A stretch of DNA of 31,267 bases from Eledone cirrhosa (Eukaryota). The notes below the pieces were generated by a model. The model searched no databases. It had not been told where the DNA came from and saw nothing but the letters and a program-made list of their open reading frames with translations. The stretch covers positions 1-31,267 of the forward strand of contig CAXHJY010000260.1 of assembly GCA_964016885.1 (NCBI GenBank), given 5' to 3'. Positions 1,997 to 31,267 of this stretch are shown one piece after another. Position numbers and translations under genes: made by a program. Each line of letters starts with the position of its first letter. The first letter of the stretch is position 1.

Positions 1997-3036
<1,040 letters not shown>

Positions 3037-3123
3037 TGTAGGAGGTGAGTTTTATTGTAGTACAATAAAGCAATGCAAATATCGGATAAGAAGCACTCTA
3101 CAGTTTGTAGGACTGGAGTATAC

Positions 3124-3373
3124 ATAATATAAGATCAAAAGATGGTTAAAGGAGTTCCATGTATTTTATTATGCGCATTTCAAAAACAAACATTATCATG
3201 CAATATGTTGATTTAAAACTGCACTATCCACAAGTGTTTTTTAGCCTTCATATCATGTTCTCAAGGTTTTATGTGATGAAAACACAAATATTATTGCATG
3301 ATAATGTTTGTTTTTGAAATGCGCATAATAAAATACATGGAACTCCTTTAACTATCGTTTGATCTTATATTAT
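3124..3373 (+). mobile_element. 250-bp fold-back element (82-bp inverted arms at 3124-3205 and 3292-3373) carrying a hammerhead motif
   Basis: The arms are near-perfect reverse complements. A second copy lies at 18648-18896 and a truncated copy at 1444-1579. Confidence 0.85.
3267..3333 (+). ncRNA. Hammerhead motif with a C3G core mutation (probably inactive)
   Basis: UUUUAU-GUGAUGA-stem II-GAAA-UGCGCA-UA/AUAAAA. Palindromic helix III AUGCGCAU is intact. Confidence 0.6.
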
Positions 3374-3380
3374 ATATTAC

Positions 3381-3452
3381 GGGGCCGATAAAATAACGTA
3401 CCAGTAATGCACTGGGTAATTGCTGGCCTTGTGCCTAAAGTAGAAACAATTA
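3381..3452 (+). mobile_element. SINE 3' fragment (same family as 25588-25715)
   Basis: ggggccgataaaataacgtaccagtaatgcactggg...gtgcctaaagtagaaacaatt aligns by eye with about 25638-25710. Confidence 0.55.
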
Positions 3453-3471
3453 TATATATATATATATATAC

Positions 3472-3520
<49 letters not shown>

Positions 3521-3539
3521 ATACATATATATATACATT

Positions 3540-3622
<83 letters not shown>

Positions 3623-3625
<3 letters not shown>

Positions 3626-6600
3626 AAAACAAATAACGAAACGAAATTAAATTTCGTTTCGTTTGTAACTCACTTTTGTATGACTGACGCTTAAACAATT
3701 AAGTTAAAGATGTACATCCATATATGTATACTGAAATACTAGTATGTATATGAATACACACACGTATACATATGTAGATGTACCAAGTTTTTTCACTGGT
3801 CATTTTACTGTGAGTGGCCAGCTATTCTGTATGTAAACACACAGACAAGCCGGTTTTTAGAGTCATACTGGTTTTTGAGGAAACACCTTTCCTCTATTCT
3901 CCAGAAAGCCAGACAAGGAATATTGAACTAGTTTCGTTGTTGTTACAACTCATCAGCAATATTTACCTATCTTCCGGCCTCTCTAGAGAATCGTAAAAGC
4001 ACATATCGTTATATGCTTTTTCTATGAAAATTAGTAGTGGGCAGACTAATTTGCATAGAGTGTGAGTAAGTACCGGTTCAACGGAGACGATAAAAACAAA
4101 TAACGAAACGAAATTAAATTTCGTTTCGTTTGTAACTCACTTTTGTATGACTGACGCTTAAACAATTAAGTTAAAGATGTACATCCATATATGTATACTG
4201 AAATACTAGTATGTATATGAATACACACACGTATACATATGTAGATGTACCAAGTTTTTTCACTGGTCATTTTACTGTGAGTGGCCAGCTATTCTGTATG
4301 TAAACACACAGACAAACCGGTTTTTAGAGTCATACTGGTTTTTGAGGAAACACCTTTCCTCTATTCTCCAGAAAGCCAGACAAGGAATATTGAACTAGTT
4401 TCGTTGTTGTTACAACTCATCAGCAATATTTACCTATCTTCCGGCCTCTCTAGAGAATCGTAAAAGCACATATCGTTATATGCTTTTTCTATGAAAATTA
4501 GTAGTGGGCAGACTAATTTGCATAGAGTGTGAGTAAGTACCGGTTCAACGGAGACGATAAAAACAAATAACGAAACGAAATTAAATTTCGTTTCGTTTGT
4601 AACTCACTTTTGTATGACTGACGCTTAAACAATTAAGTTAAAGATGTACATCCATATATGTATACTGAAATACTAGTATGTATATGAATACACACACGTA
4701 TACATATGTAGATGTACCAAGTTTTTTCACTGGTCATTTTACTGTGAGTGGCCAGCTATTCTGTATGTAAACACACAGACAAACCGGTTTTTAGAGTCAT
4801 ACTGGTTTTTTGAGGAAACACCTTTCCTCTATTCTCCAGAAAGCCAGACAAGGAATATTGAACTAGTTTCGTTGTTGTTACAACTCATCAGCAATATTTA
4901 CCTATCTTCCGGCCTCTCTAGAGAATCGTAAAAGCACATATCGTTATATGCTTTTTCTATGAAAATTAGTAGTGGGCAGACTAATTTGCATAGAGTGTGA
5001 GTAAGTACCGGTTCAACGGAGACGATAAAAACAAATAACGAAACGAAATTAAATTTCGTTTCGTTTGTAACTCACTTTTGTATGACTGACGCTTAAACAA
5101 TTAAGTTAAAGATGTACATCCATATATGTATACTGAAATACTAGTATGTATATGAATACACACACGTATACATATGTAGATGTACCAAGTTTTTTCACTG
5201 GTCATTTTACTGTGAGTGGCCAGCTATTCTGTATCTGTATAAACACACAGACAAACCGGTTTTTTAGAGTCATACTGGTTTTTGAGGAAACACCTTTCCT
5301 CTATTCTCCAGAAAGCCAGACAAGGAATATTGAACTAGTTTCGTTGTTGTTACAACTCATCAGCAATATTTACCTATCTTCCGGCCTCTCTAGAGAATCG
5401 TAAAAGCACATATCGTTATATGCTTTTTCTATGAAAATTAGTAGTGGGCAGACTAATTTGCATAGAGTGTGAGTAAGTACCGGTTCAACGGAGACGATAA
5501 AAAACAAATAACGAAACGAAATTAAATTTCGTTTCGTTTGTAACTCACTTTTGTATGACTGACGCTTAAACAATTAAGTTAAAGATGTACATCCATATAT
5601 GTATACTGAAATACTAGTATGTGTATGAATACACACACGTATACATATGTAGATGTACCAAGTTTTTTCACTGGTCATTTTACTGTGAGTGGCCAGCTAT
5701 TCTGTATGTAAACACACAGACAAACCGGTTTTTAGAGTCATACTGGTTTTTGAGGAAACACCTTTCCTCTATTCTCCAGAAAGCCAGACAAGGAATATTG
5801 AACTAGTTTCGTTGTTGTTACAACTCATCAGCAATATTTACCTATCTTCCGGCCTCTCTAGAGAATCGTAAAAGCACATATCGTTATATGCTTTTTCTAT
5901 GAAAATTAGTAGTGGGCAGACTAATTTGCATAGAGTGTGAGTAAGTACCGGTTCAACGGAGACGATAAAAACAAATAACGAAACGAAATTAAATTTCGTT
6001 TCGTTTGTAACTCACTTTTGTATGACTGACGCTTAAACAATTAAGTTAAAGATGTACATCCATATATGTATACTGAAATACTAGTATGTATATGAATACA
6101 CACACGTATACATATGTAGATGTACCAAGTTTTTTCACTGGTCATTTTACTGTGAGTGGCCAGCTATTCTGTATGTAAACACACAGACAAACCGGTTTTT
6201 AGAGTCATACTGGTTTTTGAGGAAACACCTTTCCTCTATTCTCCAGAAAGCCAGACAAGGAATATTGAACTAGTTTCGTTGTTGTTACAACTCATCAGCA
6301 ATATTTACCTATCTTCCGGCCCTCTCTAGAGAATCGTAAAAGCACATATCGTTATATGCTTTTTCTATGAAAATTAGTAGTGGGCAGACTAATTTGCATA
6401 GAGTGTGAGTAAGTACCGGTTCAACGGAGACGATAAAAACAAATAACGAAACGAAATTAAATTTCGTTTCGTTTGTAACTCACTTTTGTATGACTGACGC
6501 TTAAACAATTAAGTTAAAGATGTACATCCATATATGTATACTGAAATACTAGTATGTATATGAATACACACACGTATACATATGTAGATGTACCAAGTTT

Positions 6601-9600
6601 TTTCACTGGTCATTTTACTGTGAGTGGCCAGCTATTCTGTATGTAAACACACAGACAAACCGGTTTTTAGAGTCATACTGGTTTTTTGAGGAAACACCTT
6701 TCCTCTATTCTCCAGAAAGCCAGACAAGGAATATTGAACTAGTTTCGTTGTTGTTACAACTCATCAGCAATATTTACCTATCTTCCGGCCTCTCTAGAGA
6801 ATCGTAAAAGCACATATCGTTATATGCTTTTTCTATGAAAATTAGTAGTGGGCAGACTAATTTGCATAGAGTGTGAGTAAGTACCGGTTCAACGGAGACG
6901 ATAAAAACAAATAACGAAACGAAATTAAATTTCGTTTCGTTTGTAACTCACTTTTGTATGACTGACGCTTAAACAATTAAGTTAAAGATGTACATCCATA
7001 TATGTATACTGAAATACTAGTATGTATATGAATACACACACGTATACATATGTAGATGTACCAAGTTTTTTCACTGGTCATTTTACTGTGAGTGGCCAGC
7101 TATTCTGTATGTAAACACACAGACAAACCGGTTTTTAGAGTCATACTGGTTTTTGAGGAAACACCTTTCCTCTATTCTCCAGAAAGCCAGACAAGGAATA
7201 TTGAACTAGTTTCGTTGTTGTTACAACTCATCAGCAATATTTACCTATCTTCCGGCCTCTCTAGAGAATCGTAAAAGCACATATCGTTATATGCTTTTTC
7301 TATGAAAATTAGTAGTGGGCAGACTAATTTGCATAGAGTGTGAGTAAGTACCGGTTCAACGGAGACGATAAAAACAAATAACGAAACGAAATTAAATTTC
7401 GTTTCGTTTGTAACTCACTTTTGTATGACTGACGCTTAAACAATTAAGTTAAAGATGTACATCCATATATGTATACTGAAATACTAGTATGTATATGAAT
7501 ACACACACGTATACATATGTAGATGTACCAAGTTTTTTCACTGGTCATTTTACTGTGAGTGGCCAGCTATTCTGTATGTAAACACACAGACAAACCGGTT
7601 TTTAGAGTCATACTGGTTTTTGAGGAAACACCTTTCCTCTATTCTCCAGAAAGCCAGACAAGGAATATTGAACTAGTTTCGTTGTTGTTACAACTCATCA
7701 GCAATATTTACCTATCTTCCGGCCTCTCTAGAGAATCGTAAAAGCACATATCGTTATATGCTTTTTCTATGAAAATTAGTAGTGGGCAGACTAATTTGCA
7801 TAGAGTGTGAGTAAGTACCGGTTCAACGGAGACGATAAAAACAAATAACGAAACGAAATTAAATTTCGTTTCGTTTGTAACTCACTTTTGTATGACTGAC
7901 GCTTAAACAATTAAGTTAAAGATGTACATCCATATATGTATACTGAAATACTAGTATGTATATGAATACACACACGTATACATATGTAGATGTACCAAGT
8001 TTTTTCACTGGTCATTTTACTGTGAGTGGCCAGCTATTCTGTATGTAAACACACAGACAAACCGGTTTTTTATTAGAGTCATACTGGTTTTTGAGGAAAC
8101 ACCTTTCCTCTATTCTCCAGAAAGCCAGACAAGGAATATTGAACTAGTTTCGTTGTTGTTACAACTCATCAGCAATATTTACCTATCTTCCGGCCTCTCT
8201 AGAGAATCGTAAAAGCACATATCGTTATATGCTTTTTCTATGAAAATTAGTAGTGGGCAGACTAATTTGCATAGAGTGTGAGTAAGTACCGGTTCAACGG
8301 AGACGATAAAAACAAATAACGAAACGAAATTAAATTTCGTTTCGTTTGTAACTCACTTTTGTATGACTGACGCTTAAACAATTAAGTTAAAGATGTACAT
8401 CCATATATGTATACTGAAATACTAGTATGTATATGAATACACCACACGTATACATATGTAGATGTACCAAGTTTTTTCACTGGTCATTTTACTGTGAGTG
8501 GCCAGCTATTCTGTATGTAAACACACAGACAAACCGGTTTTTAGAGTCATACTGGTTTTTGAGGAAACACCTTTCCTCTATTCTCCAGAAAGCCAGACAA
8601 GGAATATTGAACTAGTTTCGTTGTTGTTACAACTCATCAGCAATATTTACCTATCTTCCGGCCTCTCTAGAGAATCGTAAAAGCACATATCGTTATATGC
8701 TTTTTCTATGAAAATTAGTAGTGGGCAGACTAATTTGCATAGAGTGTGAGTAAGTACCGGTTCAACGGAGACGATAAAAACAAATAACGAAACGAAATTA
8801 AATTTCGTTTCGTTTGTAACTCACTTTTGTATGACTGACGCTTAAACAATTAAGTTAAAGATGTACATCCATATATGTATACTGAAATACTAGTATGTAT
8901 ATGAATACACACACGTATACATATGTAGATGTACCAAGTTTTTTCACTGGTCATTTTACTGTGAGTGGCCAGCTATTCTGTATGTAAACACACAGACAAA
9001 CCGGTTTTTAGAGTCATACTGGTTTTTGAGGAAACACCTTTCCTCTATTCTCCAGAAAGCCAGACAAGGAATATTGAACTAGTTTCGTTGTTGTTACAAC
9101 TCATCAGCAATATTTACCTATCTTCCGGCCTCTCTAGAGAATCGTAAAAGCACATATCGTTATATGCTTTTTCTATGAAAATTAGTAGTGGGCAGACTAA
9201 TTTGCATAGAGTGTGAGTAAGTACCGGTTCAACGGAGACGATAAAAACAAATAACGAAACGAAATTAAATTTCGTTTCGTTTGTAACTCACTTTTGTATG
9301 ACTGACGCTTAAACAATTAAGTTAAAGATGTACATCCATATATGTATACTGAAATACTAGTATGTATATGAATACACACACGTATACATATGTAGATGTA
9401 CCAAGTTTTTTCACTGGTCATTTTACTGTGAGTGGCCAGCTATTCTGTATGTAAACACACAGACAAACCGGTTTTTAGAGTCATACTGGTTTTTGAGGAA
9501 ACACCTTTCCTCTATTCTCCAGAAAGCCAGACAAGGAATATTGAACTAGTTTCGTTGTTGTTACAACTCATCAGCAATATTTACCTATCTTCCGGCCTCT

Positions 9601-11376
9601 CTAGAGAATCGTAAAAGCACATATCGTTATATGCTTTTTCTATGAAAATTAGTAGTGGGCAGACTAATTTGCATAGAGTGTGAGTAAGTACCGGTTCAAC
9701 GGAGACGATAAAAACAAATAACGAAACGAAATTAAATTTCGTTTCGTTTGTAACTCACTTTTGTATGACTGACGCTTAAACAATTAAGTTAAAGATGTAC
9801 ATCCATATATGTATACTGAAATACTAGTATGTATATGAATACACACACGTATACATATGTAGATGTACCAAGTTTTTTCACTGGTCATTTTACTGTGAGT
9901 GGCCAGCTATTCTGTATGTAAACACACAGACAAACCGGTTTTTAGAGTCATACTGGTTTTTGAGGAAACACCTTTCCTCTATTCTCCAGAAAGCCAGACA
10001 AGGAATATTGAACTAGTTTCGTTGTTGTTACAACTCATCAGCAATATTTACCTATCTTCCGGCCTCTCTAGAGAATCGTAAAAGCACATATCGTTATATG
10101 CTTTTTCTATGAAAATTAGTAGTGGGCAGACTAATTTGCATAGAGTGTGAGTAAGTACCGGTTCAACGGAGACGATAAAAACAAATAACGAAACGAAATT
10201 AAATTTCGTTTCGTTTGTAACTCACTTTTGTATGACTGACGCTTAAACAATTAAGTTAAAGATGTACATCCATATATGTATACTGAAATACTAGTATGTA
10301 TATGAATACACACACGTATACATATGTAGATGTACCAAGTTTTTTCACTGGTCATTTTACTGTGAGTGGCCAGCTATTCTGTATGTAAACACACAGACAA
10401 ACCGGTTTTTAGAGTCATACTGGTTTTTGAGGAAACACCTTTCCTCTATTCTCCAGAAAGCCAGACAAGGAATATTGAACTAGTTTCGTTGTTGTTACAA
10501 CTCATCAGCAATATTTACCTATCTTCCGGCCTCTCTAGAGAATCGTAAAAGCACATATCGTTATATGCTTTTTCTATGAAAATTAGTAGTGGGCAGACTA
10601 ATTTGCATAGAGTGTGAGTAAGTACCGGTTCAACGGAGACGATAAAAACAAATAACGAAACGAAATTAAATTTCGTTTCGTTTGTAACTCACTTTTGTAT
10701 GACTGACGCTTAAACAATTAAGTTAAAGATGTACATCCATATATGTATACTGAAATACTAGTATGTATATGAATACACACACGTATACATATGTAGATGT
10801 ACCAAGTTTTTTCACTGGTCATTTTACTGTGAGTGGCCAGCTATTCTGTATGTAAACACACAGACAAACCGGTTTTTAGAGTCATACTGGTTTTTGAGGA
10901 AACACCTTTCCTCTATTCTCCAGAAAGCCAGACAAGGAATATTGAACTAGTTTCGTTGTTGTTACAACTCATCAGCAATATTTACCTATCTTCCGGCCTC
11001 TCTAGAGAATCGTAAAAGCACATATCGTTATATGCTTTTTCTATGAAAATTAGTAGTGGGCAGACTAATTTGCATAGAGTGTGAGTAAGTACCGGTTCAA
11101 CGGAGACGATAAAAACAAATAACGAAACGAAATTAAATTTCGTTTCGTTTGTAACTCACTTTTGTATGACTGACGCTTAAACAATTAAGTTAAAGATGTA
11201 CATCCATATATGTATACTGAAATACTAGTATGTATATGAATACACACACGTATACATATGTAGATGTACCAAGTTTTTTCACTGGTCATTTTACTGTGAG
11301 TGGCCAGCTATTCTGTATGTAAACACACAGACAAACCGGTTTTTAGAGTCATACTGGTTTTTGAGGAAACACCTTT
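3623..11376 (-). repeat. 467-bp tandem array, left block: 16 full units plus a 268-bp partial unit; retrozyme-like, HHR-sense strand is minus
   Basis: The unit start 'ataaaaacaaataacg' recurs at 3623, 4090, 4557 ... 11109 (467-bp period, occasional small indels). Each full unit contains a hammerhead motif on the minus strand. Confidence 0.97.
3919..3963 (-). ncRNA. Minimal type I hammerhead ribozyme of the 467-bp unit (first of 16 minus-strand copies)
   Basis: Reverse complement of the 11665-11709 motif, present once per full unit. Confidence 0.9.
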
Positions 11377-14300
11377 GGTACATCTACATATGTATACGTG
11401 TGTGTATTCATATACATACTAGTATTTCAGTATACATATATGGATGTACATCTTTAACTTAATTGTTTAAGCGTCAGTCATACAAAAGTGAGTTACAAAC
11501 GAAACGAAATTTAATTTCGTTTCGTTATTTGTTTTTATCGTCTCCGTTGAACCGGTACTTACTCACACTCTATGCAAATTAGTCTGCCCACTACTAATTT
11601 TCATAGAAAAAGCATATAACGATATGTGCTTTTACGATTCTCTAGAGAGGCCGGAAGATAGGTAAATATTGCTGATGAGTTGTAACAACAACGAAACTAG
11701 TTCAATATTCCTTGTCTGGCTTTCTGGAGAATAGAGGAAAGGTGTTTCCTCAAAAACCAGTATGACTCTAAAAACCGGTTTGTCTGTGTGTTTACATACA
11801 GAATAGCTGGCCACTCACAGTAAAATGACCAGTGAAAAAACTTGGTACATCTACATATGTATACGTGTGTGTATTCATATACATACTAGTATTTCAGTAT
11901 ACATATATGGATGTACATCTTTAACTTAATTGTTTAAGCGTCAGTCATACAAAAGTGAGTTACAAACGAAACGAAATTTAATTTCGTTTCGTTATTTGTT
12001 TTTATCGTCTCCGTTGAACCGGTACTTACTCACACTCTATGCAAATTAGTCTGCCCACTACTAATTTTCATAGAAAAAGCATATAACGATATGTGCTTTT
12101 ACGATTCTCTAGAGAGGCCGGAAGATAGGTAAATATTGCTGATGAGTTGTAACAACAACGAAACTAGTTCAATATTCCTTGTCTGGCTTTCTGGAGAATA
12201 GAGGAAAGGTGTTTCCTCAAAAACCAGTATGACTCTAAAAACCGGTTTGTCTGTGTGTTTACATACAGAATAGCTGGCCACTCACAGTAAAATGACCAGT
12301 GAAAAAACTTGGTACATCTACATATGTATACGTGTGTGTATTCATATACATACTAGTATTTCAGTATACATATATGGATGTACATCTTTAACTTAATTGT
12401 TTAAGCGTCAGTCATACAAAAGTGAGTTACAAACGAAACGAAATTTAATTTCGTTTCGTTATTTGTTTTTATCGTCTCCGTTGAACCGGTACTTACTCAC
12501 ACTCTATGCAAATTAGTCTGCCCACTACTAATTTTCATAGAAAAAGCATATAACGATATGTGCTTTTACGATTCTCTAGAGAGGCCGGAAGATAGGTAAA
12601 TATTGCTGATGAGTTGTAACAACAACGAAACTAGTTCAATATTCCTTGTCTGGCTTTCTGGAGAATAGAGGAAAGGTGTTTCCTCAAAAACCAGTATGAC
12701 TCTAAAAACCGGTTTGTCTGTGTGTTTACATACAGAATAGCTGGCCACTCACAGTAAAATGACCAGTGAAAAAACTTGGTACATCTACATATGTATACGT
12801 GTGTGTATTCATATACATACTAGTATTTCAGTATACATATATGGATGTACATCTTTAACTTAATTGTTTAAGCGTCAGTCATACAAAAGTGAGTTACAAA
12901 CGAAACGAAATTTAATTTCGTTTCGTTATTTGTTTTTATCGTCTCCGTTGAACCGGTACTTACTCACACTCTATGCAAATCAGTCTGCCCACTACTAATT
13001 TTCATAGAAAAAGCATATAACGATATGTGCTTTTACGATTCTCTAGAGAGGCCGGAAGATAGGTAAATATTGCTGATGAGTTGTAACAACAACGAAACTA
13101 GTTCAATATTCCTTGTCTGGCTTTCTGGAGAATAGAGGAAAGGTGTTTCCTCAAAAACCAGTATGACTCTAAAAACCGGTTTGTCTGTGTGTTTACATAC
13201 AGAATAGCTGGCCACTCACAGTAAAATGACCAGTGAAAAAACTTGGTACATCTACATATGTATACGTGTGTGTATTCATATACATACTAGTATTTCAGTA
13301 TACATATATGGATGTACATCTTTAACTTAATTGTTTAAGCGTCAGTCATACAAAAGTGAGTTACAAACGAAACGAAATTTAATTTCGTTTCGTTATTTGT
13401 TTTTATCGTCTCCGTTGAACCGGTACTTACTCACACTCTATGCAAATTAGTCTGCCCACTACTAATTTTCATAGAAAAAGCATATAACGATATGTGCTTT
13501 TACGATTCTCTAGAGAGGCCGGAAGATAGGTAAATATTGCTGATGAGTTGTAACAACAACGAAACTAGTTCAATATTCCTTGTCTGGCTTTCTGGAGAAT
13601 AGAGGAAAGGTGTTTCCTCAAAAACCAGTATGACTCTAAAAACCGGTTTGTCTGTGTGTTTACATACAGAATAGCTGGCCACTCACAGTAAAATGACCAG
13701 TGAAAAAACTTGGTACATCTACATATGTATACGTGTGTGTATTCATATACATACTAGTATTTCAGTATACATATATGGATGTACATCTTTAACTTAATTG
13801 TTTAAGCGTCAGTCATACAAAAGTGAGTTACAAACGAAACGAAATTTAATTTCGTTTCGTTATTTGTTTTTATCGTCTCCGTTGAACCGGTACTTACTCA
13901 CACTCTATGCAAATTAGTCTGCCCACTACTAATTTTCATAGAAAAAGCATATAACGATATGTGCTTTTACGATTCTCTAGAGAGGCCGGAAGATAGGTAA
14001 ATATTGCTGATGAGTTGTAACAACAACGAAACTAGTTCAATATTCCTTGTCTGGCTTTCTGGAGAATAGAGGAAAGGTGTTTCCTCAAAAACCAGTATGA
14101 CTCTAAAAACCGGTTTGTCTGTGTGTTTACATACAGAATAGCTGGCCACTCACAGTAAAATGACCAGTGAAAAAACTTGGTACATCTACATATGTATACG
14201 TGTGTGTATTCATATACATACTAGTATTTCAGTATACATATATGGATGTACATCTTTAACTTAATTGTTTAAGCGTCAGTCATACAAAAGTGAGTTACAA

Positions 14301-17068
14301 ACGAAACGAAATTTAATTTCGTTTCGTTATTTGTTTTTATCGTCTCCGTTGAACCGGTACTTACTCACACTCTATGCAAATTAGTCTGCCCACTACTAAT
14401 TTTCATAGAAAAAGCATATAACGATATGTGCTTTTACGATTCTCTAGAGAGGCCGGAAGATAGGTAAATATTGCTGATGAGTTGTAACAACAACGAAACT
14501 AGTTCAATATTCCTTGTCTGGCTTTCTGGAGAATAGAGGAAAGGTGTTTCCTCAAAAACCAGTATGACTCTAAAAACCGGTTTGTCTGTGTGTTTACATA
14601 CAGAATAGCTGGCCACTCACAGTAAAATGACCAGTGAAAAAACTTGGTACATCTACATATGTATACGTGTGTGTATTCATATACATACTAGTATTTCAGT
14701 ATACATATATGGATGTACATCTTTAACTTAATTGTTTAAGCGTCAGTCATACAAAAGTGAGTTACAAACGAAACGAAATTTAATTTCGTTTCGTTATTTG
14801 TTTTTATCGTCTCCGTTGAACCGGTACTTACTCACACTCTATGCAAATTAGTCTGCCCACTACTAATTTTCATAGAAAAAGCATATAACGATATGTGCTT
14901 TTACGATTCTCTAGAGAGGCCGGAAGATAGGTAAATATTGCTGATGAGTTGTAACAACAACGAAACTAGTTCAATATTCCTTGTCTGGCTTTCTGGAGAA
15001 TAGAGGAAAGGTGTTTCCTCAAAAACCAGTATGACTCTAAAAACCGGTTTGTCTGTGTGTTTACATACAGAATAGCTGGCCACTCACAGTAAAATGACCA
15101 GTGAAAAAACTTGGTACATCTACATATGTATACGTGTGTGTATTCATATACATACTAGTATTTCAGTATACATATATGGATGTACATCTTTAACTTAATT
15201 GTTTAAGCGTCAGTCATACAAAAGTGAGTTACAAACGAAACGAAATTTAATTTCGTTTCGTTATTTGTTTTTATCGTCTCCGTTGAACCGGTACTTACTC
15301 ACACTCTATGCAAATTAGTCTGCCCACTACTAATTTTCATAGAAAAAGCATATAACGATATGTGCTTTTACGATTCTCTAGAGAGGCCGGAAGATAGGTA
15401 AATATTGCTGATGAGTTGTAACAACAACGAAACTAGTTCAATATTCCTTGTCTGGCTTTCTGGAGAATAGAGGAAAGGTGTTTCCTCAAAAACCAGTATG
15501 ACTCTAAAAACCGGTTTGTCTGTGTGTTTACATACAGAATAGCTGGCCACTCACAGTAAAATGACCAGTGAAAAAACTTGGTACATCTACATATGTATAC
15601 GTGTGTGTATTCATATACATACTAGTATTTCAGTATACATATATGGATGTACATCTTTAACTTAATTGTTTAAGCGTCAGTCATACAAAAGTGAGTTACA
15701 AACGAAACGAAATTTAATTTCGTTTCGTTATTTGTTTTTATCGTCTCCGTTGAACCGGTACTTACTCACACTCTATGCAAATTAGTCTGCCCACTACTAA
15801 TTTTCATAGAAAAAGCATATAACGATATGTGCTTTTACGATTCTCTAGAGAGGCCGGAAGATAGGTAAATATTGCTGATGAGTTGTAACAACAACGAAAC
15901 TAGTTCAATATTCCTTGTCTGGCTTTCTGGAGAATAGAGGAAAGGTGTTTCCTCAAAAACCAGTATGACTCTAAAAACCGGTTTGTCTGTGTGTTTACAT
16001 ACAGAATAGCTGGCCACTCACAGTAAAATGACCAGTGAAAAAACTTGGTACATCTACATATGTATACGTGTGTGTATTCATATACATACTAGTATTTCAG
16101 TATACATATATGGATGTACATCTTTAACTTAATTGTTTAAGCGTCAGTCATACAAAAGTGAGTTACAAACGAAACGAAATTTAATTTCGTTTCGTTATTT
16201 GTTTTTATCGTCTCCGTTGAACCGGTACTTACTCACACTCTATGCAAATTAGTCTGCCCACTACTAATTTTCATAGAAAAAGCATATAACGATATGTGCT
16301 TTTACGATTCTCTAGAGAGGCCGGAAGATAGGTAAATATTGCTGATGAGTTGTAACAACAACGAAACTAGTTCAATATTCCTTGTCTGGCTTTCTGGAGA
16401 ATAGAGGAAAGGTGTTTCCTCAAAAACCAGTATGACTCTAAAAACCGGTTTGTCTGTGTGTTTACATACAGAATAGCTGGCCACTCACAGTAAAATGACC
16501 AGTGAAAAAACTTGGTACATCTACATATGTATACGTGTGTGTATTCATATACATACTAGTATTTCAGTATACATATATGGATGTACATCTTTAACTTAAT
16601 TGTTTAAGCGTCAGTCATACAAAAGTGAGTTACAAACGAAACGAAATTTAATTTCGTTTCGTTATTTGTTTTTATCGTCTCCGTTGAACCGGTACTTACT
16701 CACACTCTATGCAAATTAGTCTGCCCACTACTAATTTTCATAGAAAAAGCATATAACGATATGTGCTTTTACGATTCTCTAGAGAGGCCGGAAGATAGGT
16801 AAATATTGCTGATGAGTTGTAACAACAACGAAACTAGTTCAATATTCCTTGTCTGGCTTTCTGGAGAATAGAGGAAAGGTGTTTCCTCAAAAACCAGTAT
16901 GACTCTAAAAACCGGTTTGTCTGTGTGTTTACATACAGAATAGCTGGCCACTCACAGTAAAATGACCAGTGAAAAAACTTGGTACATCTACATATGTATA
17001 CGTGTGTGTATTCATATACATACTAGTATTTCAGTATACATATATGGATGTACATCTTTAACTTAATT
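11375..17068 (+). repeat. 467-bp tandem array, right block (about 12.2 units), inverted relative to the left block; HHR-sense strand is plus
   Basis: Reverse complement of the left block, with exact 467-bp spacing of the ORF-track copies (11632 to 16769). The only variant I noticed is T>C at 12981. Ends at ...acttaatt into (TA)n. Confidence 0.97.
11665..11709 (+). ncRNA. Minimal type I hammerhead ribozyme of the 467-bp unit (first of 12 plus-strand copies)
   Basis: AAUAUUG-CUGAUGA-GUUGU(AACA)ACAAC-GAAA-CUAG-UU/CAAUAUU: 7-bp stem I, intact core, 5-bp stem II, palindromic minimal helix III (ACUAGU). Predicted GUU cleavage after 11702. Confidence 0.9.
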
Positions 17069-18562
<1,494 letters not shown>

Positions 18563-18647
18563 TAGGAGGTGAGTTTTATTGTAGTACAATAAAGCAATGC
18601 AAATATCGGATAAGAAGCACTCTACAGTTTGTAGGTCTGGAGTATAC

Positions 18648-18896
18648 ATAATATAAGATCAAAAGATGGTTAAAGGAGTTCCATGTATTTTATTATGCGC
18701 ATTTCAAAAACAAACATTATCATGCAATATGTTGATTTAAAACTGCACTATCCACAAGTGTTTTTTAGCCTTCATATCATGTTCTCCTGTTTTATCTGAT
18801 GAAAACACAAATATTATTGCATGATAATGTTTGTTTTTGAAATGCTCATAATAAAATACATGGAACTCCTTTAACTATCTTTTGATCTTATATTAT
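18648..18896 (+). mobile_element. Second copy of the 250-bp fold-back element
   Basis: Near-identical to 3124-3373 and preceded by the same 88-bp segment (18560-18647). Confidence 0.85.
18790..18856 (+). ncRNA. Type I hammerhead ribozyme motif with a long AU-rich stem II
   Basis: UUUUAU-CUGAUGA-AAACACAAAUAUUAU(UGCAUG)AUAAUGUUUGUUUUU-GAAA-UGCUCA-UA/AUAAAA. The core is intact; the helix III palindrome (AUGCGCAU in the other copy) is mutated at 18846. Confidence 0.7.
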
Positions 18897-19394
<498 letters not shown>

Positions 19395-19397
<3 letters not shown>

Positions 19398-19665
19398 CAT
19401 TATGAAGAGAGAAGAAACAGTTAGATATAATTAGTAATAAAATGTATCATACCTAAACTGCTCCTAGATTCCTCGACTACGTAGTTTCGTGGCATAAACA
19501 AAAACAATACATCATAAAGATATAGAGTCCTTGCGAGGTCTGCCGACTTATCAAGAGGATACCTCATTTTACTAGCTTCAAGAACGCGTCTACACGACGT
19601 GAGAAAGAATCCCAAAAGGCGGAGGGGGAGATAGTCACGCGATATAACGGTCGAGAAACAGAGCT
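19395..19665 (-). repeat. 271-bp inverted arm of the 593-bp array, containing a minus-strand HHR at 19470-19559
   Basis: Reverse complement of 19844-20114, with a 178-bp spacer and a CT microhomology at 19664-19665. Confidence 0.95.
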
Positions 19666-22055
19666 GTGTGTTTCTAAATATATTGTTCATAACTCCCTCT
19701 GGTCGAGTAATCTTTGAAGCGTGGTGACTGCTGGAAAGCTGCCATTACTCATACTTCTCGCCTCCTTCACCACCTCTTCTACGGCTTCGATATAAATACC
19801 CCCTCCGCCTCCGTGGTATTTTCTTCGGGGTTATAGGAGGCTTAGCTCTGTTTCTCGACCGTTATATCGCGTGACTATCTCCCCCTCCGCCTTTTGGGAT
19901 TCTTTCTCACGTCGTGTAGACGCGTTCTTGAAGCTAGTAAAATGAGGTATCCTCTTGATAAGTCGGCAGACCTCGCAAGGACTCTATATCTTTATGATGT
20001 ATTGTTTTTGTTTATGCCACGAAACTACGTAGTCGAGGAATCTAGGAGCAGTTTAGGTATGATACATTTTATTACTAATTATATCTAACTGTTTCTTCTC
20101 TCTTCATAATGTATTTTTAACTCTGATACTGGTTCAGTCTAATTCAACCGGATTGGTCTGTCCCAGTCATTCATTGAGCAACATCGGTAAGGTTGGCACC
20201 ATTAACTCACGGTTGGGTGTGGATGCATTCATGTATATGTGTGTGTCCGCATGTATCTGTGTGTTTCTAAATATATTGTTCATAACTCCCTCTGGTCGAG
20301 TAATCTTTGAAGTGTGGTGACTGCTGGAAAGCTGCCATTACTCATACTTCTCGCCCCCTTCACCACCTCTTCTACGGCTTCGATATAAATACCCCCTCCG
20401 CCTCCGTGGTATTTTCTTCGGGGTTATAGGAGGCTTAGCTCTGTTTCTCGACCGTTATATCGCGTGACTATCTCCCCCTCCGCCTTTTGAGATTCTTTCT
20501 CACGTCGTGTAGACGCGTTCTTGAAGCTAGTAAAATGAGGTATCCTCTTGATAAGTCGGCAGACCTCGCAAGGACTCTATATCTTTATGATGTATTGTTT
20601 TTGTTTATGCCACGAAACTACGTAGTCGAGGAATCTAGGAGCAGTTTAGGTATGATACATTTTATTACTAATTATATCTAACTGTTTCTTCTCTCTTCAT
20701 AATGTATTTTTAACTCTGATACTGGTTCAGTCTAATTCAACCGGATTGGTCTGTCCCAGTCATTCATTGAGCAACATCGGTAAGGTTGGCACCATTAACT
20801 CACGGTTGGGTGTGGATGCATTCATGTATATGTGTGTGTCCGCATGTATCTGTGTGTTTCTAAATATATTGTTCATAACTCCCTCTGGTCGAGTAATCTT
20901 TGAAGTATGGTGACTGCTGGAAAGCTGCCATTACTCATACTTCTCGCCTCCTTCACCACCTCTTCTACGGCTTCGATATAAATACCCCCTCCGCCTCCGT
21001 GGTATTTTCTTCGGGGTTATAGGAGGCTTAGCTCTGTTTCTCGACCGTTATATCGCGTGACTATCTCCCCTCCGCCTTTTGGGATTCTTTCTCACGTCGT
21101 GTAGACGCGTTCTTGAAGCTAGTAAAATGAGGTATCCTCTTGATAAGTCGGCAGACCTCGCAAGGACTCTATATCTTTATGATGTATTGTTTTTGTTTAT
21201 GCCACGAAACTACGTAGTCGAGGAATCTAGGAGCAGTTTAGGTATGATACATTTTATTACTAATTATATCTAACTGTTTCTTCTCTCTTCATAATATATT
21301 TTTAACTCTGATACTGGTTCAGTCTAATTCAACCGGATTGGTCTGTCCCAGTCATTCATTGAGCAACATCGGTAAGGTTGGCACCATTAACTCACGGTTG
21401 GGCGTGGATGCATTCATGTATATGTGTGTGTCCGCATGTATCTGTGTGTTTCTAAATATATTGTTCATAACTCCCTCTGGTCGAGTAATCTTTGAAGTGT
21501 GGTGACTGCTGGAAAGCTGCCATTACTCATACTTCTCGCCCCCTTCACCACCTCTTCTACGGCTTCGATATAAATACCCCCTCCGCCTCCGTGGTATTTT
21601 CTTCGGGGTTATAGGAGGCTTAGCTCTGTTTCTCGACCGTTATATCGCGTGACTATCTCCCCCTCCGCCTTTTGGGATTCTTTCTCACGTCGTGTAGACG
21701 CGTTCTTGAAGCTAGTAAAATGAGGTATCCTCTTGATAAGTCGGCAGACCTCGCAAGGACTCTATATCTTTATGATGTATTGTGTTTGTTTATGCCACGA
21801 AACTACGTAGTCGAGGAATCTAGGAGCAGTTTAGGTATGATACATTTTATTACTAATTATATCTAACTGTTTCTTCTCTCTTCATAATGTATTTTTAACT
21901 CTGATACTGGTTCAGTCTAATTCAACCGGATTGGTCTGTCCCAGTCATTCATTGAGCAACATCGGTAAGGTTGGCACCATTAACTCACGGTTGGGTGTGG
22001 ATGCATTCATGTATATGTGTGTGTCCGCATGTATCTGTGTGTTTCTAAATATATT
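19664..22055 (+). repeat. 593-bp tandem array (4 units + 21 bp); retrozyme-like, HHR-sense plus
   Basis: The unit start 'ctgtgtgtttctaaat' occurs at 19664, 20257 ... 22035. A few SNPs and one 1-bp deletion. Ends into (TA)n. Confidence 0.96.
19950..20039 (+). ncRNA. Minimal type I hammerhead ribozyme, U3-A8 core variant with a large loop II (also at 20543-20632, 21135-21224, 21728-21817)
   Basis: UCCUC-UUGAUAA-GU(C)GGCA...UGCCAC-GAAA-CUACGUAG-UC/GAGGA. Stem I UCCUC/GAGGA; helix III is the 10-nt palindrome ACUACGUAGU. Predicted GUC cleavage after 20034. Confidence 0.82.
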
Positions 22056-23258
<1,203 letters not shown>

Positions 23259-23262
<4 letters not shown>

Positions 23263-24790
23263 TATTGTAGGAGCTCAGCATGTATGCCATCCATACCTGG
23301 AGATCTTCCACTGTTCAGCTTCGAAATAGCCACTGCAACCTCGACAAGCGTCGGAGGTCCTGCGAGAGCTACTTTCACAGGACTTTCTGGAATGAGATTG
23401 AGGAAATCTTCACTGACGACAGACGGCTGATTCAAAAGATCATCAAAGTGCTCTCGCCACCTTAGTAGAATTCCTTGTGAGTCACGAAGAAGTTCTTTGC
23501 CATCCCTGCTGCGAAGCGGTGTCACCAGAGAAGAAGACGGTCCATAAACCTCACGCAAGAGACTGTACAACAGCTTTGTGTTATTGGAATCAGACGCAGT
23601 TTGTATCTCACCAGCCTTCTCACTCCACCACTGATCCTTCATCTGAGAAAGACTCCGCCTAACACGTGATTTTACATCCCTGAGTTCCTCATGCAACGTA
23701 TTCCTCTCCTGTGGTTTTGCCGTCAAGTAGCGTGACAGAGCACGCCTCTTATCAGCCAACAAGTCTTCTATATGTACATCATTCTCATTAAACCAGTCCT
23801 GATGTTTCCTCTGCGCCAATCCCAGAACACGCCTGACTACATCATAAACCGACTTTTTAAGGGTTGGCCAATCCTCACCAAGATCTGCAGCCTGCATCTC
23901 TTCTTCCAATGTCCTCTTCACATTTTTATCCTTAAGACGAGCAGCATTCAATCTTTTGAGCAGAGCAACACCAGGAGCCCGGATTTTATGTTTAGTGATT
24001 AGTTTCACTTTTGCGCGTACCAGGCGGTGGTCCGTCCAGCACTCAGCTCCACGAAGAACACGAACACACCGCACATCGTGTCTGTCACGCATCCTGACTA
24101 GGACGTAGTCCAAAAGATGCCATTCCTTAGATGCAGGATGCATCCATGTGGTCTTGAATTTGTTCTTTTGTTGGAACATGGTGTTGGTAACACACAGATC
24201 CAGCTCCTCACACATCTGCAGCAGGAGCATACCATTGCTGTTACACTTTCCCACCCCATGCCTTCCGATTACATTCCATGTGTTAAAATCCCTACCCACT
24301 CTAGCATTAAAGTCACCAAGCACGATGACTTTGTCTGCCTGAGGGATATTTCTTAAAACACCTTTCAAGGCATGGTAAAAGGACACCTTTTCCTCATCGA
24401 CAGAACTCATAGTTGGAGCATACACACTCACCAGGGTAGCATATCTTCCCTTGTCCAGCGGAACTCTCATGGACATAAGACGCTCACTAATCCTTACTGG
24501 GAATTCTTCTAATTTGTTCACAAGTACAGTCTTAACAGCAAATCCTACCCCAGCCTCTCTTCTGGTTCCTTCATCTCTTCCTTTCCAGAAGAATGTATAT
24601 TCTCCACAAAAATTCCGTAAGATGACCATCTCCAGCTAACCTCGTCTCAGATAAAGCCACGATGTCAAGATCGTAACGTCGAAGCTCCTTTGCAACAAGA
24701 CCGGTCCTTCGTTCAGGACGCTCCAAGGAATCCCTGTCAAGCAGCGTCTGTACGTTCCAGCAGCCAAGACTAAATGCCTTGTTTGGCTCT
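23259..24790 (-). pseudogene. RTE-clade LINE ORF, 5' half: APE endonuclease and linker, truncated at the start of the RT domain; one frameshift near 24610
   Basis: Motifs LGCWNVQTL, DIVALSETRL, GVGFAV, VSVYAPT, LGDFNARVG, TWMHP, LDYVLV, TDHRLV, GRSPGMDGIHAELL. The N-terminus lies in a second frame (ORF 24571-24975). Confidence 0.9.
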
Positions 24791-26009: not shown

Positions 26010-27187
26010 TCAACAGAGAGTAGAGAGTTTGACAACAGGTCGATGACTTAAGTCTAGATAGGGTAATGACATGTGATGGTGGGGAGAGAGTGTAGAAGTT
26101 ATTGTGGTGGCGGGGGTGACAGTGCGATGTATCTAGTTCATTTGACCGTTTTCTTCTCTTTGCAAAATTTGAATTTTAGCCATGTTATATTGAGATGTAA
26201 GTAAATGGAAAATGTAAAATATAAATAAGGATTGCTCTGCTAAAATATACTAAAATATTTGTGTAACTTCCACAAACTTCTGTCGTGATATTCCCGAGTC
26301 CAGTGACCAACAAATTGTTGTATTTTGATGTTTCAGAATACAAAAATTAATTAAAAACTTACCCCACGAAAAGACAGCGTGTGTTGTCCTATCTATAAGC
26401 TCCCTCATACATCATATCTCCCCTATATATATATATATATATTCATACATATATATATATATATATATAAGTTGAAAAAAATGAAAACGAAATTTCATTT
26501 CTCACTCTTAGTATGGCACTTACTTAAATGTAAGTATGTATGTATACGTACATACATATATGTATACAGACGTACAGTAGCATGCACATATATACACATA
26601 TACGCATATATATATATATATATATATATATTATACACACACATATACACATATGCATACAGGTACACATACATATATGCACGCATCAGTTTAGCCGATG
26701 TTTATTGGTATTCCAGGTAGTGGATGATATATATACTCATGTATACTGTTGAAGATGAAGAGAAAGACTGTAAAAAACTAGCTTATCTTTATAACTTAAA
26801 ATTGATATACACTACGATACTTTTTGCCTTATGACAGCTAGTTTTACACGCCGTAACATTAGATACATTATATACCCCCCACCTAAGTAATGTCTGGGTC
26901 TCCTAAATAATTTATTGATAGCATTGTTATAATTGTTGTTATTGTTCTAATTGAATGGCATTACTACTTGATATAGTAGCATGTATTTTCTTTTCTTTTC
27001 TTGCCTGTGTATTTTCTTCATTCTCGCATGCTCCGAGGATCTGACTGGTTATAATTCTGTATTGGCGATCGAATAACGCAAAATTAGGCGGATAGCGATC
27101 TCTAGACATACCAGTTCAGTGAAACAAATGTAAGCTATGTGATTAAAAACTTTTTTGTATAGCAAACCATGAAAACCTTCTTTCCTG

Positions 27188-27378
<191 letters not shown>

Positions 27379-27659
27379 GTATAAAGAAAAAGGGATGAAA
27401 TCGAAAATGCAACTGAACTCTTATTTTTTTTTTAAATATATATATTTATTTGGTTCCTTTACCGGTTTCGCAGTTCTTCTGCTTTTCAAAAGGTGAGTTG
27501 AGATGGTGGGTCTGTGGTAACCACAGAACCTCCATATCAACTCACCTTTTGAAAAGCAGAAGAACTGCGAAACCGGTAAAGGAACCAAATAAATATATAT
27601 ATTTTTTAAAAAAATAAGACTTCAGTTGCATTTTCGATTTCATCCCTTTTTCTTTATAC
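27379..27659. repeat. 281-bp palindrome (140-bp arms, 1-nt centre at 27519) with one HHR per arm; unique sequence continues to about 27720
   Basis: The arms are reverse complementary with a few mismatches. Centre reads tctgtggt-a-accacaga. Confidence 0.95.
27545..27582 (+). ncRNA. Minimal type I hammerhead ribozyme, U3-A8 variant (mirror copy at 27456-27493, minus strand)
   Basis: CCUU-UUGAAAA-GCAG(AAGAA)CUGC-GAAA-CCGG-UA/AAGG. Helix III palindrome ACCGGU; predicted GUA cleavage after 27578. Confidence 0.85.
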
Positions 27660-27713: not shown

Positions 27714-27800
<87 letters not shown>

Positions 27801-27812
27801 CATATATAATAC

Positions 27813-27871
<59 letters not shown>

Positions 27872-27918
27872 TATATATATATAATATATATATATATATA
27901 TAATATATATATATATAC

Positions 27919-28004
<86 letters not shown>

Positions 28005-28027
28005 ATAATATATATAATATATATATA

Positions 28028-28248
<221 letters not shown>

Positions 28249-28282
28249 ATATACATATATATATATACATATATATATATAC

Positions 28283-28340
<58 letters not shown>

Positions 28341-28354
28341 GATATATATATATG

Positions 28355-28456
<102 letters not shown>

Positions 28457-28468
28457 ATTATATATATA

Positions 28469-28520
<52 letters not shown>

Positions 28521-28542
28521 ATATATATATATATGTATATAT

Positions 28543-28614
28543 ATAATGAAAAATTGAACAGGGACAGATCAGAGAGTCAGTACAATAAATGTTTATTAAA
28601 TTCACGCTCAGGAA
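28543..28614. repeat. 72-bp island in (TA)n, with an inverted copy at 29836-29907
   Basis: Reverse complements with 2 mismatches. Confidence 0.9.
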
Positions 28615-28618
28615 TATA

Positions 28619-28651
<33 letters not shown>

Positions 28652-28672
28652 ATATATATATATGTATATATG

Positions 28673-28713
<41 letters not shown>

Positions 28714-28936
28714 CATATATATATATATATATGTATATATATGTATATATATATATATATATATATAAATATATATATATATAATATATATATATTTTAA
28801 TACATATATATATTTTAATACATATATATTTTACACTACTCCGGAGTAACCAAACCAACCTGCGCACTTTGTCGAGTACTCCAGCCTGCATACTGAGGTG
28901 TTGGTATACGACCAACATAAACTCAAAATCTATATA

Positions 28937-28996
<60 letters not shown>

Positions 28997-29025
28997 TATA
29001 ATAATATATATATACATATATATAA

Positions 29026-29061
<36 letters not shown>

Positions 29062-29062
29062 C

Positions 29063-29119
<57 letters not shown>

Positions 29120-29132
29120 CATATATATATAG

Positions 29133-29209
<77 letters not shown>

Positions 29210-29249
29210 TATATTCATATATATATATATATACACATATATATAATAT

Positions 29250-29283
<34 letters not shown>

Positions 29284-29289
29284 ATATAC

Positions 29290-29320
<31 letters not shown>

Positions 29321-29332
29321 CATATATATATA

Positions 29333-29412
<80 letters not shown>

Positions 29413-29414
29413 AT

Positions 29415-29612
<198 letters not shown>

Positions 29613-29629
29613 ATACATATATTATAATT

Positions 29630-29666
<37 letters not shown>

Positions 29667-29673
29667 GTAAGGG

Positions 29674-29721
29674 CGGTGCCCCAGCATGGCCTCAGCCGGA
29701 TGGCTGAAACAGGTAAAAGAG
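29674..29721 (+). mobile_element. 48-bp SINE/LINE 3'-tail fragment
   Basis: Exact inverted copy at 30367-30414, where it carries a (gtaaaaga)n-type tail. Confidence 0.6.
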
Positions 29722-29731
29722 AATAATATAT

Positions 29732-29765
<34 letters not shown>

Positions 29766-29793
29766 ATATATATATATAATATATAATATATAT

Positions 29794-29837
<44 letters not shown>

Positions 29838-29908
29838 CCTGAGCGTGAATTTAATAAACATTTATTGTACTGCCTCTCTGTTCTGTCCCTGTTCAATTTT
29901 TCATTATC

Positions 29909-29939
<31 letters not shown>

Positions 29940-29948
29940 CATATATAC

Positions 29949-30043
<95 letters not shown>

Positions 30044-30079
30044 TACATATATATATTATATATATATATATATATACAA

Positions 30080-30269
<190 letters not shown>

Positions 30270-30280
30270 CATATATACAA

Positions 30281-30326
<46 letters not shown>

Positions 30327-30357
30327 GTTATATATATATATATATATATACATATAT

Positions 30358-30414
30358 ACTCTTTTACTCTTTTACCTGTTTCAGCCATCCGGCTGAGGCC
30401 ATGCTGGGGCACCG
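30358..30414 (-). mobile_element. Inverted copy of the same 3'-tail fragment, with an 8-bp tandem tail
   Basis: tactcttttactcttttacctgtttcagccatccggctgaggccatgctggggcaccg. Confidence 0.6.
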
Positions 30415-30418
30415 TAAC

Positions 30419-30483
<65 letters not shown>

Positions 30484-30499
30484 TTATATATATATATAT

Positions 30500-30535
<36 letters not shown>

Positions 30536-30563
30536 CATAATATATATATATATACATATATGT

Positions 30564-30601
<38 letters not shown>

Positions 30602-30614
30602 CATATATATATAC

Positions 30615-30647
<33 letters not shown>

Positions 30648-30678
30648 ATATATATATATATATATACATATATATATA

Positions 30679-30756
<78 letters not shown>

Positions 30757-30757
30757 C

Positions 30758-30936
<179 letters not shown>

Positions 30937-30962
30937 TATATATATATATAATATATATATAT

Positions 30963-31267
30963 ATTAAGTTAAAAATGTACATCCACATATGTATACTGAA
31001 ATACTAGTATGCATATGAATACACACACGTATACATATGTAGATGTACCGAGTTTTTCACTGGTCACTTTACTGTGAGTGTCCAGCTATTCTGTATGTAA
31101 ACACACAGACAAACCGGTTTTTAGAGTCATACTGGTTTTTTAGGAAACACCTTTCCTCTATTCTCCAGAAAGCCAGACAAGGAATATTGAACTAGTTTCG
31201 ATGTTGTTACATCTCATCAGCAATATTTACCTATCTTCCGGCCTCTCTAGAGAATCGTAAAAGCACA
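30963..31267 (-). repeat. Diverged copy of the 467-bp unit (runs off the window end)
   Basis: Aligns to the array consensus with about 9 substitutions and 1 deletion over 305 bp (counted by eye). Abuts (TA)n. Confidence 0.95.
31183..31227 (-). ncRNA. Hammerhead ribozyme variant with a compensatory stem II change
   Basis: AAUAUUG-CUGAUGA-GAUGU(AACA)ACAUC-GAAA-CUAG-UU/CAAUAUU. Substitutions at 31201 and 31212 convert a U-A pair to A-U. Confidence 0.9.

Follow-up and report, generated by a model that had tools for sequence, protein, structure and literature searches.

A stem II pair swap marks lineages of a candidate hammerhead retrozyme in Eledone cirrhosa

Hammerhead units and arrays in the window

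The window analyzed here, 31,267 nt in length, is one entire contig (CAXHJY010000260.1) of the 3.0-Gb genome of Eledone cirrhosa, and it is rich in TA microsatellite. A two-armed insertion of a 467-nt non-coding unit lies between a TA tract at 3451..3622 on its left and another at 17069..19397 on its right. The first arm, at 3623..11376 on the minus strand, is a tandem array of 16.6 units with 16 hammerheads and ends, in the 3' sense, at unit position 466 against TA; the opposite arm, at 11375..17068 on the plus strand, has 12.2 units and 12 hammerheads and ends at unit position 392, likewise against TA. The two arms of this insertion (3623-17068) stand back-to-back, and only a few letters distinguish their 30 copies. 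A last copy of the unit, truncated by the contig end, occupies 30963..31267 on the minus strand, hosted by TA microsatellite plus other small inserts at 27720..30962. Its RNA-sense 3' end at 30963, adjoining the TA tract, is one of the two fixed end points of the family.

Within this last copy, a 45-nt type I hammerhead motif is found at 31183..31227 on the minus strand. It has a stem I of 7 bp, the core CUGAUGA/GAAA, a stem II of 5 bp closed by an AACA loop, a helix III of 2 bp and a GUU triplet; the cut is predicted from the sequence to fall between 31190 and 31189. The elements CUGANGA, GAAA and UH are present in the type I order, with three helices, and the short helix III lies in ACUAGU, a self-complementary palindrome. 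Such a short palindromic helix III is of the dimer type (PMC4209133; PMC3088659). The Rfam model Hammerhead_HH9 matches 31167-31238 with 36.5 bits (E 7e-8), which is under its gathering score of 52, and at the gathering threshold the whole window is without an Rfam match. Rfam microRNA matches in the window were dismissed as AT-rich hairpins scoring far under their own thresholds.

A hammerhead pattern count over the whole genome gave 9,294 family matches; the repeat amounts to about 9,300 copies of the unit. As in animal non-LTR retrozymes (PMC7229834; 10.64898/2026.07.22.740005), the unit is a non-coding tandem repeat of ~35% GC that has a single type I hammerhead, is dispersed in thousands of copies and gives a predicted RNA that is highly self-paired. 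Retrozymes are expected to show at least two consecutive hammerhead-bearing non-coding units, and the window arrays have 16 and 12; the 159 separate insertions sampled here are dispersed over many contigs and have no LTRs. The length of 467 nt exceeds the 150-450 bp quoted for retrozymes in PMC7229834 but is within the 51-972 bp of the preprint 10.64898/2026.07.22.740005. Folded as circles, monomers of six lineages are 66-68% paired by prediction, with z of -8 to -15 on the ribozyme strand and -6 to -8 on the opposite strand. Titles and abstract openings of the literature on octopus hammerheads, a coverage that takes in few subscription papers, mention no such repeat; the supplements of PMC7229834 and 10.64898/2026.07.22.740005 may list related families.

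The stem II pair and its lineages

Over an alignment of 306 columns, the last copy departs from the array unit at 10 places, 9 of them substitutions and one a gap. Just two of these are in the hammerhead motif, and they are pairing partners in stem II on the minus strand: position 10.2 (31212) is A here and U in the window arrays, and position 11.2 (31201) is U here and A in the arrays. Stem II therefore reads GAUGU/ACAUC in the last copy, whereas each of the 28 array hammerheads has GUUGU/ACAAC; no difference is seen in the core, in stem I or in helix III. On these changes within the motif the alignment agrees with the earlier note, made from the window alone. Given exactly two changes in 45 nt, the chance that they are complementary partners is ~0.005, and the chance that two of the 9 substitutions in 305 nt make a kept pair anywhere in the folded unit is ~0.024, both rough figures calculated after the fact.

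The same note took the last copy to be a diverged one. It is instead an ordinary member of a large lineage: genome-wide pattern counts gave 5,221 copies of the U-A form and 4,086 of the A-U form. The swap is not an assembly error, since the A-U form is found in so many genomic copies and the contigs of run X1 include both letters at both sites. Other combinations at 10.2/11.2 are scarce, at 16 copies (4 + 12) vs 9,307, a count over the searched combinations, which did not include A at 11.2 opposite G or C at 10.2. Seven of the 16 are G.U or U.G, and the five U.G copies were ruled out as a spreading sub-lineage because their backgrounds differ.

In the first tree, every sampled lineage with a GUC triplet has A (or a private G) at 10.2 and U at 11.2, and a sister family has A and U at the equivalent places. 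From these states A-U can be taken as the older form and U-A as derived, so that the swap most likely ran from A-U to U-A. The direction first proposed, from GUUGU/ACAAC to GAUGU/ACAUC, is probably reversed; directions of change, here and below, rest on neighboring copies and the sister family. For the origin of the pair, a tree was built from 147 insertions with the two swap columns removed, after excluding 12 of 159 rows that had fewer than 380 covered columns or other pair states. The pair label needs five changes on this tree, of which the starred branches force only one. When the 68 U-A rows were constrained together, the likelihood was better than that of the free search (p-AU 0.76), which fits a single origin of the U-A pair. 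The triplet at window position 31190 gives a further order of events. GUU, a slower cleavage triplet, is found in the two largest lineages and GUC in the others, which implies that the triplet change preceded both expansions. Near-identical pieces also occur at low depth in three runs labeled as other organisms, X4 (A-U with GUC), X5 and X6 (both U-A), and could represent related species, diet or environmental DNA.

The double change had been read as a sign of selection on the RNA fold. Since it is most simply one event inherited by thousands of copies, it counts as a single observation, and a single inherited swap is weak evidence of selection. Selection on the fold is better upheld by the scarcity of mismatched forms and by the sister family, which keeps the hammerhead core though it is only ~68% alike elsewhere, with five further pairs changed on both sides. 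The unit of that family is ~425-480 nt long, with a stem II of AGCU/AGCU, a U.U or C.A at its base and a GUA or GUU triplet; a U.U at the base of stem II is also seen in the axolotl HHR_Amex2 of the retrozyme literature (PMC7229834). The earlier note had looked to covariation in a family alignment as a check. Among 21 hammerhead variants from both families, 94% of cells pair vs 28-50% with slid partners, but the count of both-sided pair changes, 6 of 14, was reached in 201 of 500 shuffles, and most of these changes are single family-level events, from two families.

Both-sided changes also occur in pairs outside the ribozyme, a sign that the earlier note had named as speaking against its interpretation. 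Of 148 predicted pairs compared across 26 full units, 6 were changed on both sides and five of these are beyond the ribozyme. What this takes away is the specificity for the ribozyme; an RNA route is not refuted by it, because the entire unit is predicted to fold. Beyond the ribozyme, no strand-specific selection was found across the whole monomer, as judged from the Watson-Crick pairs of one real unit. Counting pair variants present in at least three insertions, we found 16 G.U, 12 A.C, 9 other mismatches and 2 both-sided changes outside the ribozyme. In the ribozyme stems the only such variants were the swap itself, a G.U and a mismatch at a stem terminus.

The swap could also have been made in one step, by template switching or by DNA or cDNA hairpin correction, in an RNA-borne retrozyme whose master copy then spread neutrally; such an origin is silent on selection for stem II, and we regard it as a real but lesser possibility. 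A single origin on the tree suits it, template switching can generate compensatory changes (PMC8794818), and as DNA, too, each strand can form the 5-bp hairpin (-2.6 to -3.5 kcal/mol). The two substitutions are transversions that no G.U intermediate could connect, an (AAC)3 run is completed by the new 3' arm, and the five non-ribozyme pairs changed in the same both-sided way. Against a single step, the loop is not inverted and the neighboring bases are unaltered, and in three or more insertions the ribozyme stem pairs have no variants beyond the short list just given. One insertion, L098, has U.U in two of its three copies on a background nearest to the U-A lineage; this fits a two-step path, yet may be a private change. 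By itself, the swap is nothing unusual in a structured RNA, and little is gained from it.

Insertion ends and strand-biased A>G changes

More can be learned from how the copies end. The ends were surveyed in 118 insertions with 525 copies, and the set was enlarged to 159 insertions. The loci are a non-random sample, found by hammerhead patterns or as best matches, most of them with the core in the pattern, so that core-mutant lineages could be missed. Outer RNA-sense 3' ends fell at unit positions 391-398 or 462-467 in 163 of 174 cases, including four at position 467 of which two are query-end artefacts, and 130 of the 174 have a TA-rich flank. Outer 5' ends are scattered, with 38 ends at 33 positions. 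Back-to-back arms with their 3' ends outward were seen in 95 of the 159 insertions, and arms with their 3' ends inward in none.

Fixed 3' ends with a tail, 5' truncation, an inverted copy and a microsatellite target make up the footprint of Penelope-type insertion, and all are present. Penelope-like elements leave 5'-truncated tandems with an inverted copy and a short tail, often in TA targets (PMC8557442), and a purified Penelope protein cut AT-rich DNA on both strands and initiated at two positions within the RNA (PMC11167929). With these elements and their pseudo-LTRs (PMC4209133; PMC8557442; PMC11167929), the 467-nt unit shares a type I hammerhead with a short palindromic helix III, TA targets, 5' truncation, an inverted 5' copy and a pair of 3' end points separated by tens of bases. 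Unlike them, it has no reading frame, and the entire unit is repeated up to ~30 times.

The window itself contains the 3' piece of a Penelope-like element at 22343-23261 on the minus strand, with a GIY-YIG domain (Pfam PF01541) followed by a pseudo-LTR that ends at TA; a second hammerhead is found in this pseudo-LTR near 22500-22548. The piece belongs to a young, abundant family whose members have frames of 1,186-1,243 aa, a hammerhead and two 3' ends in TA that are ~60 nt apart. As a possible partner of the 467-nt unit it matches in geometry, but a comparison of this one family at 30 loci found no sequence in common.

A second type of evidence comes from base changes on the ribozyme strand. 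For every insertion, the six closest ones in the sample served as the comparison, and a change was called insertion-wide if it was present in all of at least two copies and the neighbors were unanimous on another letter. Homopolymer columns, gap-adjacent columns, mixed clusters and the columns used for picking loci were masked. In the first set, 32 of 56 insertion-wide changes were A>G and 6 were T>C; after enlargement of the set and exclusion of its most recurrent site, the corresponding numbers were 42 and 8 of 77. Single-copy changes have no A>G excess (34 A>G vs 45 T>C, n=372). Across the 159 insertions, single-copy changes on this strand have more G>A (74) than C>T (46), which could be the result of deamination of single-stranded cDNA or of mosaic copies.

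Two insertions account for half of the A>G signal, L187 (G000:C1:62077133) with 10 A>G changes and L217 (G000:C2:86970033) with 11, each present in every covering copy; without these two the count is 21 vs 8 (p 0.015). The L217 set includes a hammerhead core base, and its sites that are covered by both arms are common to both. More generally, fixed differences between the arms were found in only one of 28 two-armed insertions. Insertion-wide A>G changes lie in predicted stems in 25 of 30 cases, vs 92 of 151 for all A's. In stem I, genome-wide counts of copies (not events) gave 151 A>G at two sites and 44 T>C at three sites, and at a third site 231 copies across several lineage backgrounds have A>G. 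Among loci fetched for a recurrent stem I A>G, 5 of the 41 insertions examined have it in only some of their copies.

Invertebrate A-to-I editing is depleted of G upstream of the site, with a preference for A after it (PMC5625713). Here, G precedes 3 of 42 sites vs a 15% background (p 0.09), a weak match to ADAR, and G is enriched after the A>G sites. A>G changes that cluster on one strand and fall mainly within predicted stems resemble A-to-I hyper-editing of repeat RNA (PMC5625713); the difference is that the changes here are in genomic DNA and in step across every copy of an insertion. Most simply, a single edited RNA circle would have been copied over and over, starting at the two ends of a break. 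Within a literature coverage that again takes in few subscription papers, record-level searches on editing and retrozymes or retroelements gave no report of in-step A>G in retrozyme arrays.

Origin of the arrays

Fixed ends, outward arms, one-strand A>G, the better fold of the ribozyme strand and a core kept across families together support an RNA route. The earlier note had held that the element replicates through RNA and is not a passive satellite, and this is well supported, by the insertion ends and the strand-biased A>G and not by the swap from which it was argued. We consider it probable, judging from genomic sequence, that the motif belongs to a ~9,300-copy non-LTR retrozyme, in which the swap is a lineage marker and RNA circles are copied into TA by a Penelope-like enzyme. 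In such a cycle, the ribozyme would likely cut the transcript to unit length, the cut unit would likely close into a circle, and a Penelope-like reverse transcriptase, presumably supplied by a Penelope-like element, would likely copy the circle repeatedly into TA microsatellites. The U-A pair would have arisen once from A-U and have spread because stem II stayed paired. Copying of retrozyme circles by a Penelope enzyme has been proposed in print (PMC7229834; 10.64898/2026.07.22.740005); the accessible parts of these two texts contain no two-armed insertions, fixed ends or A>G footprints. Several findings already given count against this explanation: the share of the A>G signal that two insertions contribute, the weak ADAR context, the 5 of 41 insertions in which only some copies have the recurrent change, the single-copy G>A excess, the lack of strand-specific selection beyond the ribozyme, the shuffle result, the absence of common sequence with the one Penelope-like family compared, and the non-random sample. 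So do the GUU triplet of both big lineages, where others have GUC, and the altered core base with which L217 was inserted.

The A>G changes would be ADAR edits on the template RNA, a single molecule of which would have yielded all copies and both arms of an insertion. We lean, by a narrow margin of belief, to the stronger proposal that each insertion records in DNA a single circular RNA molecule edited by ADAR and copied for many rounds from both break ends, and that editing is a main source of the element's evolution. If so, the genome keeps thousands of single-molecule records of germ-line editing, and the arrays are direct evidence for the rolling-circle step, a proposal in the retrozyme model. 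Editing would also feed A-U to G.U to G-C changes in the stems of the element. The family is a test bed for these ideas: its ~9,300 copies are young, their ends are fixed and their A>G changes run in step, so that copying from a circular template can be put to the test by sequence analysis alone as well as in vitro.

It is unlikely that RNA moved single units or linear multimers, and that the arrays were built later in DNA, by unequal exchange or fold-back synthesis and with no circle. That some changes are common to only part of an array, as in L098 and L201, speaks for this reading. However, a linear multimer should be edited copy by copy, and it is the single-copy changes that are without the A>G excess; moreover, arrays begin at two fixed points distinct from the cut site and end anywhere, and the 30 copies in the two window arms are nearly identical. 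A passive satellite spread as DNA (rolling-circle DNA or eccDNA), with the hammerhead as a relic, is very improbable, for its tandem, very homogeneous arrays and the unmet Rfam gathering score are outweighed by one-sided fixed ends in TA, arms that are only back-to-back, strand-biased A>G, one strand that folds better and a core kept across families.

Several other inserts share the TA-rich surroundings of the circle-copied unit proposed here. A fragment of the sister family, the older of the two, at 26467-26706 on the minus strand is 79% alike over 247 columns, a TA run included. Between TA tracts at 19395-22055 there is a 593-nt tandem repeat of about four units plus an inverted partial copy, likewise two-armed, in which a hammerhead was sought by pattern and by Rfam and none was found. 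An open frame of 627 aa at 22752-24635 on the minus strand joins a LINE-type endonuclease piece (PF14529, under the cut-off) in frame with a GIY-YIG piece; probably, nested insertions happened to meet there in frame. The TA tracts also contain small repeats arranged as fold-backs or inverted copies, at 1356-1579, 3036-3377, 18560-18884 and 27379-27659 and as the pair 29674-29721 with 30367-30414, the last of which may resemble an octopus SINE tail.
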